Below, piece by piece: positions 11,042 to 12,787 of a stretch of 64,000 nucleotides of DNA; within the stretch, counting starts at the first letter, position 1; each line of letters begins with the position of its first letter. The DNA comes from Candidatus Zhuqueibacterota bacterium (GTDB lineage Bacteria > Zhuqueibacterota > Zhuqueibacteria > Thermofontimicrobiales > Thermofontimicrobiaceae): assembly GCA_049322915.1 (NCBI GenBank), contig JBMOPW010000001.1, positions 105,858-169,857 of the forward strand, read 5' to 3'. The notes beneath the pieces were generated by a model. It was not told where the DNA came from and searched no databases. It worked only from the letters and a program-made list of their open reading frames with translations. Both the position numbers and the translations under genes were made by a program.

Positions 11042-12787
11042 TTAATTTAAATCCATTCTTAATTTCGTCTTCAGGTCCTCCTGTTCAATATGCAATTCGT
11101 CCTTCATACCTTCTGCAGCATTCGGTTGAAACAGATTCTTCAGACTAAGCTTATTTTTTTTTAGCGAACCATTACGCTGATGGTCAATCAGAAGGGTCAA
11201 TTTTTCAATGATGTACTGAGCGTCGGACAGCGCATTGTTGTCATTGACCAGCATGCCCGCCAGGATCGATGGAATATTATGAAAGTGAGGCATAAAATCT
11301 TCAGTAACGATCACTTTCTTCAGCAAAATTTCTTCGAATAGTCCACCGATGAACATTGCGAACTCTTCGATTTTATCATGCGAATAGAGCTGCGCTGAAT
11401 TTTGAAGAGCAATACAGGCATTCTTGATGTTGCGGAATAGCTTGGGATCCTGATTCATCAGATTAATATGATTCAGTGATTCCTTCAGGATATTCAAGTC
11501 GCCGGCTATCTCTTCCGAAAACATCTGGTCGAACACCCGATGAGCCGATTGCTTTGGCTTTTCCTGCTCTCTGGGTTCCTCATCACGAATCACCTTCCTG
11601 TCATTGCCGGATTTTTCCTCTTTTTGAAGTATCATTTCCGGGGCCGGTTTGACAATCTTATCTTCCTTCACCGGGGTGACGAATGTTTTGCTTTCCTTGA
11701 TATCGAAAAAAGGGTTGGCATCCACCTTTTTTTTCTCCATCGGCGCTGGTTGCGGTTTTGCTGTTCGTAATTCCCCAGCCGGACCTTTGGCTTTTGTGCC
11801 GGTCGCAATGAGCAGGACGCGAATTTTATCCTCCATGCCCGGATCAATGCGCGCGCCCCAGATAATGCGGGCGTTGGGATCCAGCTTCTCTGCAATGGAT
11901 ATCATCACGCTGCGGGCCTCGCGGATTGACATGGATTCGTTGCCTGTGATATTGATTAACGCACTTTGCGCGCCGGTTATATCCACATCGAGCAGGGGAT
12001 TATCGATCGCTTTAGCGACGGCGTCCTGAGCTTTGTTTTCTGTATTGCTTTCGCCAATCCCAATCATCGCTGTATCGCCATCCTTCATGATCGATTTGAC
12101 GTCCGCGAAATCGAGGTTCACCAGACCTTTCTCAGTGACCAGTTCGGTAATGCCTTTCACGGCATTGGTTAAAATTTCATCGGCGACTTTGAACGCGGCA
12201 TTCAGCGGCAGGTCCGGAACCATATCCAGCAACCGGTCATTCTGGACGACAATGACGGTGTCAGAATGTTCCCGCAGTTTGGCTAAACCGGCCTTTGCAT
12301 TTTCGCGGCGCATCACACCCTCTTCGGTGAAGGGCAGCGTGATGACAGAAATTGTGAGCGCATTCAAACTGCGCGCAATTTCCGCGACGACGGGCGCAGA
12401 ACCGGTACCTGTCCCTCCGCCGAGACCGCACGTGATGAATACCATGTCGCAACCTTCCAGCAGTTCGCGAATCTCCGCCTCGTTCTCCCGTGCTGCGCTT
12501 TCACCAATTTGAGGATTACTGCCCGCGCCCAATCCGTTCGAAAGGTTTTTTCCGATGAGGATTTTATGTTCAGCCTTTGTGAACAGCAGATCCTGGGCGT
12601 CTGTATTGACCGCTACAGTTTCTACCCCTTTAATACCGACTTCGGTCAACCGAGTAATCGTATTATTTCCCGCGCCGCCCGCACCAATCACCTTGATTTT
12701 CGTGCGATGCGTTTTGAGTAAACTTTCCAGTTCTTCATCTTTTGTTTTCAAAGTGAACTCCTTTGTGGATATTTTCTCCCTCGACAT
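11042..12787 (-). CDS. ftsZ: FtsZ-family GTPase (archaeal FtsZ1-like core) fused to a C-terminal Hpt-like domain
   Basis: [27 protein letters not shown] tubulin signature, NLDFADV T7 loop; ~250-aa C-terminal extension. Confidence 0.93.
   Translation of the reverse strand: [581 protein letters not shown]

Follow-up and report, generated by a model that had tools for sequence, protein, structure and literature searches.

A second FtsZ with an archaeal FtsZ1-type core and a CheA-P1-like domain in Zhuqueibacterota: a probable case of ancient inter-domain transfer

Background

FtsZ phylogenies are commonly read as a clean split between Bacteria and Archaea, and this reading has been used to argue for the presence of FtsZ in LUCA. 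Among Bacteria, additional members of the family coexist with the division protein: the magnetosome protein FtsZm is one such paralogue, and FtsZm, FtsZl-1 and the paralogues of Hyphomicrobiales represent either bacterial duplications or very divergent families. ParA/MinD-type ATPases such as MinD, MipZ and PomZ act in the positioning of FtsZ. FtsZl-1 and related bacterial paralogues of the FtsZ family were reportedly described by Makarova and Koonin in 2010.

According to the available part of a report on Hyphomicrobiales, the paralogues found in this order are truncated (PMC13732431). In Archaea, the available sections of two studies place ftsZ1 next to translation genes (PMC9871819, PMC8178401), and in one of them the GID motif in the C-terminal domain of FtsZ is given as nearly invariant and bound by SepF (Pende et al. 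2021, PMC8178401). In this work we describe an FtsZ family from the bacterial phylum Zhuqueibacterota that combines an archaeal-type core with a signalling-type domain. Our literature search, whose coverage lay mostly outside subscription journals, retrieved no published description of this family, and the main text of the paper on Zhuqueibacterota does not mention FtsZ (PMC11683472).

Results

A second FtsZ gene in a bacterial genome

The window, i.e. the whole stretch of 64,000 nt from Candidatus Zhuqueibacterota bacterium (GCA_049322915.1, contig JBMOPW010000001.1) to whose positions all coordinates below refer, carries on its minus strand (11042..12787) an open reading frame of 581 aa that encodes a second FtsZ, hereafter FtsZ-long. 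The protein comprises an archaeal FtsZ1-type core, a linker, a P1/HPt-like domain and a short tail. The GTPase core (residues 1-345; 11753..12787, minus strand), with the GGGTGTG signature and the T7 loop NLDFAD, matches the Pfam families Tubulin (PF00091; residues 30-190, E 2.7e-50, 171.7 bits against a cut-off of 33) and FtsZ_C (PF12327; residues 239-331, E 1.5e-31, 109 bits against a cut-off of 27), and the NCBIfam model TIGR00065 (ftsZ) scores 420.5 bits (cut-off 295.2).

The original prediction placed the feature at 11797-12787, which takes in the FtsZ core only; the gene extends 755 bases further, to 11042. The motif strings quoted there are all found in this minus-strand frame, and the claim that the signature loop and the T7 loop are intact agrees with the translation, where both GLGGGTGTG and NLDFAD (NxDxxD) are present; judged by these motifs, FtsZ-long is predicted to be an active GTPase. 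The motifs are retained throughout the family (GGGTG[TS]G in 55 of 56 members, N[LV]DFAD in 51 of 56). An uninterrupted frame, together with motif conservation across 50-odd genomes, led us to reject a pseudogene.

The archaeal appearance of the core, also proposed originally, is borne out by comparison with solved structures. In a search of PDB sequences the best relative was FtsZ1 of Methanocaldococcus jannaschii (1fsz/1w58; 405 bits over residues 9-334), followed at a distance by bacterial FtsZs from Staphylococcus aureus (about 300 bits), Bacillus subtilis (293) and Mycobacterium tuberculosis (287), with 242 bits for the weakest chains. In the trimmed alignment the core is 59% (56-64) identical to archaeal FtsZ1, 46% (41-48) to canonical bacterial FtsZ and 47% to FtsZ2. 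The closest named relatives outside KSB1 are all archaeal.

Past the core, the typical archaeal terminus gives way to other elements. Whereas 62 of 68 archaeal tails carry the terminal GI(D/E)F motif, expressed as G[IL][DEK][FIL][VLIM], only one of 56 members of the FtsZ-long family does. The linker contains a short conserved linear motif, FFDIKE (residues 360-365; 11693..11710, minus strand), and the corresponding pattern [ILFVM][FY][DE][ILV][KRQ][DE] is found after the core in 26 of the 56 members, with the deepest classes represented, and is absent from all 68 archaeal tails.

The host genome, of the KSB1/Zhuqueibacterota type and 96% complete, contains two FtsZ genes, both of which exceed the TIGR00065 cut-off. 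The canonical one (413 aa) lies downstream of ftsA on contig C11 and displays GGAGGNAV, TKPF and the C-terminal peptide ELPTFLRRR. FtsZ-long is located outside the dcw cluster and away from ftsA, and the bacterial FtsA-binding C-terminal peptide is missing from it. SepF was not found in a search of the host genome. The canonical ftsZ gene, the P1/HPt-like second half of FtsZ-long and the surrounding signalling genes were absent from the original prediction.

An archaeal-type gene in a bacterial genome calls for caution with respect to assembly or binning. Mislabelling does occur in these data, as two MAGs labelled bacterial, which carry short archaeal-type versions of FtsZ, also contain the archaeal ribosomal protein S8e. 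Nonetheless, the possibility that FtsZ-long resides on an archaeal contig or in a chimeric assembly binned with a bacterial genome may for practical purposes be dismissed. The 64-kb stretch around the gene encodes LptD (2 kb away), an NtrC-type activator, glutamine synthetase and further bacterial proteins, S8e was not found in the host genome, and the GC content around the gene (45-47%) is unremarkable for a window that spans 37-53%. Moreover, dozens of independent assemblies show this fused architecture and synteny. The host is thus bacterial, as originally presumed.

Distribution and phylogenetic position

Of 167 genomes from the KSB1/Zhuqueibacterota-type phylum, about 97 have the FtsZ-long gene, with both deep classes represented (counted by hand at a best E <= 1e-100, plus one fragment at a contig edge; the 167 include the unpublished genomes G162, with the gene, and G158, from which it is absent). 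Some 70 genomes are devoid of it, among them whole families of near-complete genomes; nine families, with 50 genomes altogether, lack it entirely.

Trees were calculated from sets of 96, 44 and 53 rows, picked by hand from 397 distinct sequences so as to span the groups, and from a larger set of 315 rows, in which every fifth of 120 close homologues was kept and 87 unlabelled representatives falling outside the archaeal-type clade, which we assumed to be bacterial, were added. To be kept, a row had to cover at least 250 query residues; the CetZ-like genes of two archaeal genomes, which aligned to fewer than 250 core residues, were left out of all trees as too divergent. The bacterial outgroup consisted of 13 sequences from a single phylum, E. 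coli and the unlabelled representatives.

In the 96-row ML tree (IQ-TREE, LG+C20+F+G4 PMSF) the 13 canonical FtsZs of the host phylum and that of E. coli form one clade (100/100) on a stem of 1.4 changes/site. This clade excludes FtsZ-long, which lies on the other side of that stem; nesting among the phylum's ordinary FtsZs, which was named beforehand as fatal to the archaeal interpretation, is thus not what the tree shows. The FtsZ-long family instead forms a clade of its own (98/97) with Undinarchaeota FtsZ1 as its sister (100/99). The 315-row FastTree recovers the same nesting with support 99 and the split between bacterial and archaeal sequences with support 100. The family and its place in these ML trees are directly observed.

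The approximately unbiased (AU) tests, whose groups were named after a first tree was in hand, are less uniform. An archaeal FtsZ1 clade that excludes the FtsZ-long family is rejected with 44 rows (p-AU 0.019 under LG+F+G4, 0.0019 under PMSF), whereas with 53 rows, which include more bacterial-type sequences, FtsZ1 monophyly without the family is not rejected (p-AU 0.20). It is bootstrap support and two of three AU tests, therefore, on which the nesting within FtsZ1, and hence the direction of transfer, is based.

These results bear on the two origins that were originally envisaged, a transfer between domains followed by repurposing and a deep FtsZ paralogue. According to the second scenario, the family would descend from an FtsZ lineage that diverged either at the root of the archaeal FtsZ1/FtsZ2 radiation or earlier and survived in this bacterial phylum only, and it would look archaeal because canonical bacterial FtsZ evolved fast. 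Trees that place the family and all bacterial FtsZs on one side of a branch are indeed compatible with the data (p-AU 0.153 and 0.157 for 44 rows, 0.28 for 53 rows), the best of them with 53 rows has the family branching at the base of all archaeal sequences, and the family is old within the phylum, with deep classes just 44-51% identical to the copy in the window. On the other hand, a deep paralogue requires loss in all other bacterial phyla; the unconstrained trees all make the family sister to one DPANN lineage inside FtsZ1 (100/99); every tree, even under constraint, leaves it on the archaeal side of the bacterial/archaeal stem (1.0-1.4 changes/site), so that it falls inside the bacterial clade in none of them, the constrained ones merely joining the bacterial stem to its own; and its 59% identity to archaeal FtsZ1 is comparable to the 60-65% observed among the FtsZ1 proteins of different archaeal phyla. 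Given also the outcome of two of the three AU tests, we regard a deep paralogue as quite improbable. Of the two origins, transfer with subsequent repurposing has the better support, since only one bacterial phylum has the family, the ML trees nest it within FtsZ1, and it has gained a new C-terminal domain as well as a new genomic context.

A CheA-P1-like domain without the acceptor histidine

Residues 408-540 of FtsZ-long (HMM envelope 417-533; 11168..11566, minus strand) are predicted to form a five-helix domain of the CheA-P1/HPt type from which the acceptor histidine is missing. An AF2 model of the tail, with a pLDDT of 94.7, displays the five helices, and the six best Foldseek matches to this model, in which all five helices correspond, are all CheA P1 domains, including 1i5n, 2lp4 and 8c5v (TM 0.75-0.81, TMq 0.73-0.79, rmsd 2-3 A). 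A comparison of profiles by hhalign links the tail family to the Hpt domain of the host's own CheA (probability 92.9, E 3.8e-7), and within the host genome the tail-domain profile matches this gene cluster and that CheA only. The Pfam model Hpt (PF01627) does not match the tail encoded in the window even at E 10; precomputed matches to it were found for 3 of 120 homologues, among the matches listed. On the strength of the predicted structure, the fold of the tail is that of P1/HPt.

None of 69 copies of the domain has His in the column aligned to the acceptor histidine of CheA, a residue of helix B, or in the preceding one. This absence is directly observed, and phosphate relay via the usual histidine is ruled out because of it. 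One could argue that the domain remains a working phosphotransfer module that uses another residue, e.g. the Cys found just before the acceptor column in 37 of 53 FtsZ-long copies, and that FtsZ-long is a true member of a phosphorelay, given that a receiver gene is a regular neighbour and kinases are encoded close by. However, the other 16 copies, and also 15 of 16 copies from neighbouring genes, have Ala, Ser, Val, Thr or Met instead of this Cys, the acceptor column varies widely (K, S, I, T, A and others), just 7 of the 53 FtsZ-long copies keep the Gly at position H+4, and no residue of the acceptor helix is invariant. Such a role is therefore, in our opinion, very improbable. A complex predicted for the P1-like domain and the neighbouring receiver obtained a score of 0.17 against a mark of 0.32, a result that speaks neither for binding nor against it.

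A conserved gene cluster with a signalling character

FtsZ-long belongs to a conserved cluster, the synteny of which is directly observed and which includes a sigma-54 activator, a sigma-54-type promoter, a receiver, a ParA/MinD-like ATPase and a lytic transglycosylase, all on the minus strand. The P1-like domain recurs in both flanking proteins of the cluster. The upstream neighbour (594 aa; 12893..14677), without a Pfam family, contains two copies at 13730-14068 and 12941-13279 (i-E 1.1e-12 and 1.2e-27 in the profile search), which BLASTP with the FtsZ-long tail did not detect; an upstream neighbour with such copies is found in 12 of 14 loci from the window's class and two sister families. 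The downstream neighbour (479 aa; 9105..10544) is an acidic protein, also without a Pfam family, with P1-like domains at 10137-10484 and 9312-9662 (i-E 9.2e-12 and 9.5e-17; BLASTP to the FtsZ tail, E 2e-5) and a counterpart in 9 of 14 loci. Between this gene and FtsZ-long lies a DMT_6 (DUF486) membrane protein (10642..10992; Pfam E 1.5e-46), which has no counterpart in the 31 related loci examined and is probably not a part of the module.

Further upstream, the lytic transglycosylase with an SLT domain (15277..16035; Pfam E 1.3e-19) is syntenic in 11 of 14 loci. The ParA/MinD-family P-loop ATPase (16398..17249), with Pfam matches to AAA_31 (E 1.4e-52), CbiA and MipZ, is syntenic in 10 of 14 loci and absent from the module versions of the deep classes; its NCBIfam matches to MinD, ParA and other named subfamilies are all below cut-off. 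The first gene of the putative operon encodes a response-regulator receiver fused to DUF4388 (17233..17952; Response_reg E 9.8e-24, DUF4388 E 1.6e-8), and 27 of 30 distinct loci have a receiver orthologue upstream of FtsZ-long.

A sigma-54-type promoter-like site, TGGCATACTTTTTGCG (17990..18005, minus strand), was identified by a consensus scan 38 nt before the ATG of the receiver. With two mismatches to the strict consensus it is not significant by itself, and matches to the sigma-54 consensus are not enriched in the window (25 found vs 35.7 expected by chance). Of 27 related loci, 22 have the motif 38-68 nt upstream of the receiver and no shuffled region contains it, and it is solely from this comparison across related loci that the site draws its support. 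The host genome contains rpoN. The NtrC-type sigma-54 activator, with REC, AAA+ and HTH_8 domains (18485..19852), is syntenic in all 16 deep-class loci and in most others. According to Pfam, the genes upstream of it encode a REC-PAS-PAS histidine kinase (19859-21925), a HAMP-PAS histidine kinase (22150-23652) and a REC-GGDEF protein (23678-24628), also on the minus strand; these sensor genes (19859..24628) are known here from the window alone.

This neighbourhood also bears on the cellular role. FtsZ-long could share the origin considered above and yet be a regular part of the divisome, which co-assembles with the canonical Z-ring or modulates it in each cell cycle and builds no separate, signal-induced structure. 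There is precedent in FtsZ1 and FtsZ2 of Archaea and in FtsZ paralogues of plastids and some alphaproteobacteria; the intact GTPase and T7 motifs, together with a syntenic ParA/MinD-like ATPase and lytic transglycosylase, both typical accessories of division, would be in line with such a function. The paired archaeal FtsZs work on one ring, according to the available sections of PMC8178401. Still, we find this role unlikely in view of the location outside the dcw cluster, the missing FtsA-binding peptide, and the presence at the locus of a sigma-54-type promoter, a dedicated activator and kinases. In addition, the roughly 70 of 167 genomes that lack FtsZ-long indicate that it is dispensable for division as such.

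Discussion

We consider it likely that FtsZ-long goes back to an ancient transfer of FtsZ1 from Archaea to Bacteria, and that the protein was repurposed as a signal-controlled accessory filament. The FtsZ1 core was most likely gained once, from a DPANN-like archaeon related to Undinarchaeota, with later losses in some families. Once transferred, the protein would have had its archaeal "GIDF" peptide at the C-terminus replaced or overwritten, and a CheA-P1/HPt-like domain devoid of the phospho-accepting histidine would have been fused onto the core.

What such a protein does in the cell can be outlined with less assurance. It is possible that a signal switches on the operon via the sigma-54-type promoter, with its own NtrC-type activator and sensor kinases, and that the FtsZ-long core forms GTP-dependent polymers. 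In the role of the usual C-terminal peptide, the dead P1 domain could then offer a docking site to the phosphorylated receiver, the P1-repeat proteins or both, while the ParA-like ATPase would position the filament and the transglycosylase would cut the wall at that place; ordinary division would stay with the canonical FtsA-FtsZ pair. We tentatively propose, as an idea that may well turn out to be wrong, that the captured FtsZ1 has been wired into two-component signalling in such a way that binding of the phosphorylated receiver to the dead P1 domain and to the P1-repeat scaffolds switches the assembly or placement of a second cytoskeleton, which together with the ATPase and the wall-cutting enzyme would carry out a signal-induced programme of shape change, differentiation or alternative division. 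The direction of transfer, polymerisation, docking and the cellular role are all inferred from the comparisons presented above.

If a bacterial family found across a phylum has an archaeal FtsZ1 core, the split of FtsZ between Bacteria and Archaea is not without exception, and the family could serve as a dated marker for the exchange, between domains, of a gene central to cell biology. The histidine-less CheA-P1 domain in place of a C-terminal adaptor peptide, the neighbouring receiver and the sigma-54-type promoter point to two-component signalling coupled directly to a tubulin-like polymer, and this coupling, despite the lack of cultured representatives, is testable on purified proteins.

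Among the described systems, archaeal FtsZ1 (M. jannaschii 1FSZ/1W58, Undinarchaeota and other DPANN) is the most similar, since the core of FtsZ-long aligns with it end to end, including the N-terminal helix, shares the intact GTP-binding signature and T7 loop, and groups with it in the ML trees. Unlike archaeal FtsZ1, FtsZ-long is found in a bacterial host, is longer by about 200 aa, carries the P1/HPt-like domain, has nearly lost GI(D/E)F (retained in 1/56 members) and occurs in a host genome in which SepF was not found; its gene is flanked by a receiver, a ParA-like ATPase, an SLT protein, P1-repeat proteins and a sigma-54 activator instead of translation genes. With the canonical bacterial FtsZ of the dcw cluster it shares the superfamily and the Pfam domains, but the two are only 41-48% identical and fall in separate clades (100/100), and FtsZ-long has no ftsA neighbour.

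The predicted five-helix fold of the tail and the proximity of a receiver gene recall CheA P1 and its complexes with CheY (1I5N, 2LP4, 8C5V, 3KYI). In contrast to CheA P1, the domain in FtsZ-long has no acceptor histidine, has mostly lost the Gly at H+4, and occurs fused to an FtsZ, or as repeats in acidic proteins with no other features, rather than attached to a kinase. Similarly to FtsZl-1, the paralogues of Hyphomicrobiales and FtsZm, FtsZ-long is a further tubulin-like GTPase that coexists with the FtsZ of division, with a presumed accessory or specialised function. It differs from them in that a signalling-type domain is fused to a nearly canonical FtsZ1 core of the archaeal kind, a distinction drawn from descriptions of those proteins only. 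Finally, a ParA/MinD-family ATPase, with Pfam matches including MipZ, is encoded in the same putative operon, which recalls the MinD, MipZ and PomZ systems; unlike these, it falls below the NCBIfam cut-offs of the named subfamilies and is missing from the modules of the deep classes. Taken together, these comparisons suggest that FtsZ-long may be a so far undescribed, signal-gated cytoskeletal filament. Should the tentatively proposed wiring of a captured FtsZ1 into two-component signalling hold, it would represent the first documented transfer of FtsZ from Archaea to Bacteria and the first case of direct control of FtsZ by a receiver.

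GTPase core and host genome

FtsZ-long, the second FtsZ of the window's genome, is encoded by an open reading frame of 581 aa (11042..12787, minus strand). The original prediction had covered the N-terminal two thirds of this frame and left out the rest of the gene; the motif strings quoted there are all present in the translation. According to Pfam, the Tubulin/FtsZ GTPase domain comprises residues 30-190 and FtsZ_C residues 239-331, and the protein scores 420 bits with the NCBIfam ftsZ equivalog model, against a cut-off of 295. Both the GGGTGTG signature and the NLDFAD of the T7 loop are intact, and at the level of sequence comparison FtsZ-long is shown to possess an intact FtsZ1-type GTPase core with long-term conservation.

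The window belongs to contig C1 of a 6.25 Mb genome (96% complete, 2.5% contaminated), in which we found two FtsZ-class genes. The other copy, on contig C11, encodes 413 aa directly downstream of ftsA and exhibits the bacterial motifs GGAGGNAV, FVTAGMGGGTGTGAAP and TKPF as well as the C-terminal peptide ELPTFLRRR. This canonical FtsZ, the presence of LptD 2 kb from FtsZ-long, and the failure to find the archaeal-only ribosomal protein S8e in the genome bear out the bacterial nature of the host. The GC content near FtsZ-long is unremarkable, and the named close relatives are MAGs labelled candidate division KSB1, Zhuqueibacteraceae or Calditrichaeota.

The archaeal appearance of the core, which had been noticed from the sequence alone, is confirmed by three measures. 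Among solved structures, M. jannaschii FtsZ1 is by far the best match (405 bits; the alignment spans residues 9-334 and takes in the N-terminal helix), compared to about 300 bits for S. aureus, 293 for B. subtilis, 287 for M. tuberculosis and 242 for the weakest bacterial chains. In a trimmed alignment, identity of the core to FtsZ1 proteins of several archaeal phyla amounts to 59% (range 56-64), as opposed to 46% to canonical bacterial FtsZ, including the copy from its own genome, and 47% to FtsZ2. As a yardstick, FtsZ1 proteins from different archaeal phyla share 60-65% identity among themselves.

Phylogenetic placement

Five kinds of sequence were assembled for the trees: long-form proteins (56 loci of the phylum), archaeal FtsZ1-type proteins (68), FtsZ2-type proteins encoded in those same archaeal genomes (5), canonical FtsZs (23, of which 22 stem from genomes of the phylum or KSB1-like MAGs and one from E. 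coli), and unlabelled representatives of 50% clusters. In the 96-row IQ-TREE analysis (LG+C20+F+G4 by PMSF; UFBoot/SH-aLRT), the long form constitutes a clade (98/97) of 34 rows and one unlabelled representative. This clade joins an Undinarchaeota clade (100/99), and both are embedded in a grade formed by DPANN and other FtsZ1 proteins. The canonical bacterial FtsZs, the ordinary ones of the host phylum included, make up a separate clade (100/100), whose stem measures 1.4 changes per site, so that the family does not nest among them. A further clade comprises the FtsZ2 candidates together with three of the unlabelled representatives (SH-aLRT 98 in the quick tree). The family is recovered with 100/98 in a 44-row subset, and the same nesting is observed in a 315-row FastTree, to which 87 further representatives outside the archaeal-type clade, assumed to be bacterial, were added (family 99, family with Undinarchaeota 99, bacterial/archaeal split 100).

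Enforcing FtsZ1 as a clade without the family worsened the likelihood by 17.2 lnL (p-AU 0.019; 44 rows, LG+F+G4) or 18.8 lnL (p-AU 0.0019; PMSF), and gave p 0.20 with 53 rows (LG+F+G4, 16 extra bacterial-type representatives), while placing the family and all bacterial FtsZ on one side gave p 0.153 and 0.157 (44 rows, LG+F+G4 and PMSF, respectively) and 0.28 (53 rows, LG+F+G4); all these AU values are weakened by the fact that the constraint groups were named after the first tree had been seen. In the constrained trees, either the long bacterial stem joins the stem of the family beside Undinarchaeota, or the family takes up a basal position in the archaeal clade; none of the trees places it on the bacterial side of the long stem. 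The archaeal type of the core can be regarded as secure, and its position within crown FtsZ1 as probable, hence a probable inter-domain transfer. The other origin offered in the original prediction, a very deep FtsZ paralogue, is less probable, on account of the confinement of the family to one phylum rather than of sequence alone.

Two broad FtsZ phylogenies (PMC9871819, PMC8178401) report no notable transfer between archaea and bacteria, or a clear separation of the two. We found no description of this family in the main text of openly searchable papers. FtsZ-long belongs to the FtsZ family; its origin is unexpected, and its domain fusion and regulatory context are undescribed.

Relatives and distribution

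The best 120 matches in a collection of 5.8 billion proteins are mostly of the same long form (500-690 aa, 62-97% identity); the first short ones among them comprise 366-384 aa with 66-69% identity, one being labelled 'archaeon'. In species-representative genomes, the best matches outside KSB1 (58-66% identity) are FtsZs of Undinarchaeota, Nanoarchaeota/Woesearchaeota, Aenigmatarchaeota, Hydrothermarchaeota and Methanosarcinales-labelled MAGs. Two exceptions carry bacterial labels, a 'Sulfurovum' sp. of 0.9 Mb (locus L009, genome G172) and an 'Acidobacteriota' bacterium of 1.2 Mb (L069, G173). Since both possess archaeal-type FtsZ genes only, plus the archaeal S8e marker, they are probably wrongly labelled DPANN-type archaeal genomes or bins.

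With the core as query, we searched the GTDB phylum, represented by 167 species genomes, and counted the results by hand, two unpublished genomes being included (G162 with the gene, G158 without). In 96 genomes the best match reached E <= 1e-100, the open frames being about 500-900 aa long, with a few truncated at contig ends; one more genome has a fragment, 67% identical, at the edge of a contig, which brings the total to approximately 97. FtsZ-long is present both in the class of the window and in the other classes of the phylum; in the latter, its identity to the window's protein is 46-63%. Nine families (f4, f6, f9, f10, f11, f12, f13, f16 and f19), with 50 genomes, many of them >90% complete, lack it entirely. 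This distribution fits one old gain followed by several losses. Some 70 of the 167 genomes retain canonical ftsZ and lack FtsZ-long, which makes the latter an accessory system rather than part of the core divisome.

Other FtsZ variants were encountered in these searches. Genomes G043-G046 (family f4) and G041 have two or three FtsZ-class matches each, all at the canonical level (E 1e-63 to 1e-86), which may represent a different duplication of bacterial type. In three unlabelled representatives of 744-840 aa (P0121, P0122, P0125) the FtsZ core is matched in two separate stretches (41-44% identity), and these may be tandem double-FtsZ proteins. In P0133, P0136, P0137, P0158 and P0262 the core lies at the C-terminal end of long proteins.

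The C-terminal P1-like domain

Past the core, FtsZ-long contains a linker and then a domain of about 128 aa, which the family profile recovers from all long-form FtsZs examined, with E 1e-31 to 1e-48. The profile also matches twice in the 594-aa protein encoded upstream and twice in the 479-aa protein encoded downstream, in neither of which was any Pfam family found. Elsewhere in the genome it matches only the N-terminal Hpt of one CheA-type kinase (Hpt-HATPase_c-CheW-REC; hhalign probability 92.9, E 3.8e-7); the Pfam Hpt model gives no match to the tail of the window's FtsZ-long. AlphaFold2 predicts five helices (pLDDT 94.7, 69-row alignment), with CheA P1 (HPt) domains as the best structural matches (2LP4, 1I5N, 8C5V; TM 0.73-0.81) and a further match to CheA3-P1 in complex with CheY6 (3KYI). 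The CheA histidine is aligned by hhalign with I459, and none of the 69 copies of the domain has a histidine in the acceptor column or in the one preceding it; in 37 of the 53 FtsZ copies the latter column holds Cys, and seven of the 53 keep the H+4 glycine. The match of the predicted fold to CheA P1, together with the missing acceptor histidine, argues that the tail is a dead P1/HPt domain.

The last ~19 residues of FtsZ-long (11045-11100, minus strand) are common to several relatives, P0005, P0043, P0062 and P0063 ending likewise in L(K/R)M(D/E)LN; the tails differ in other sub-lineages, and deep-class proteins stop directly after the P1-like domain. Possibly, this is a lineage-specific terminal peptide. 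The acidic 479-aa protein ends in a basic stretch, ...ETKKKVKVVFSPEDERGRWMSKFK (9105-9200, minus strand), which, judged by eye, could be an amphipathic membrane-targeting tail.

Gene neighbourhood and promoter

On the minus strand, the order of transcription is REC-GGDEF, HAMP-PAS histidine kinase, REC-PAS-PAS histidine kinase, NtrC-type sigma-54 activator, a gap of 532 bp, REC-DUF4388, ParA/MinD-like ATPase, SLT lytic transglycosylase, the 594-aa P1-repeat protein, FtsZ-long, a DMT_6 gene (DUF486 membrane protein, 10642-10992) and the 479-aa P1-repeat protein. We compared 30 distinct related loci (31 were examined, two being the same place). An orthologue of the receiver, in which a LIVDDEEDLTWS motif is nearly invariant, is located ahead of the cluster in 27 of the 30 (E 1e-23 to 1e-41), and the minimal form, i.e. 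activator, short receiver and FtsZ-long, is found in all 16 loci of the deepest classes. In the window's class and its two sister families (14 loci), synteny extends to the SLT gene in 11 loci and to the ParA-like gene in 10; a protein of the 594-aa type was detected in 11 by phmmer (in 12 when the profile was used) and one of the 479-aa type in nine. Two loci from hot-spring Zhuqueibacteraceae MAGs (L017, L018) have a different context, with no usual neighbours within 6 kb, and longer FtsZ-long proteins (717 and 772 aa). The DMT_6 insertion is particular to the window (0/31 related loci). An extra small receiver gene occurs between the ParA-like and SLT genes in L007 (2663-3076), L008 (3430-3906) and L014 (2617-3036), and in L008 it appears to take the place of SLT.

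A sigma-54-type site, TGGCATACTTTTTGCG, is located 38 nt before the ATG of the receiver gene, and sigma-54 is encoded in the genome. Of 27 related loci, 22 have the same motif, TGG[CT]A[CT]-N5-T[TC]GC, at 38-68 nt upstream from the receiver domain; when each region was shuffled 100 times, it never appeared. The comparison of loci shows a near-obligatory pairing of FtsZ-long with a receiver gene, as well as a conserved sigma-54-type site and a dedicated activator.

Proposed mechanism and comparison with archaeal FtsZ1

We propose that the sensor kinases would induce the cluster through the NtrC-type activator, and that the FtsZ-long core would polymerise. The P1-like domain, rather than the usual C-terminal peptide, might then serve as the docking site for the receiver, by analogy to the docking of CheY by P1, and/or for the P1-repeat proteins, and the ParA-like ATPase and the transglycosylase could position the structure and remodel the wall.

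SepF was not found in the window's genome with Pfam. According to Pende et al. (PMC8178401), the FtsZ C-terminal domain carries a nearly invariant GID motif that is bound by SepF. In our set, 62 of 68 archaeal proteins end in ...(L/Y)GI(D/E)F(V/L)x, whereas only one of 56 members of the bacterial family shows this pattern. On the other hand, 26 of the 56, from both shallow and deep classes, possess an (I/F)FDIKE motif in the linker (FFDIKE in the window, residues 360-365, 11693-11710, minus strand). It is tempting to speculate that this motif is a remodelled version of the SepF-binding GI(D/E)F terminus of the archaeal proteins.
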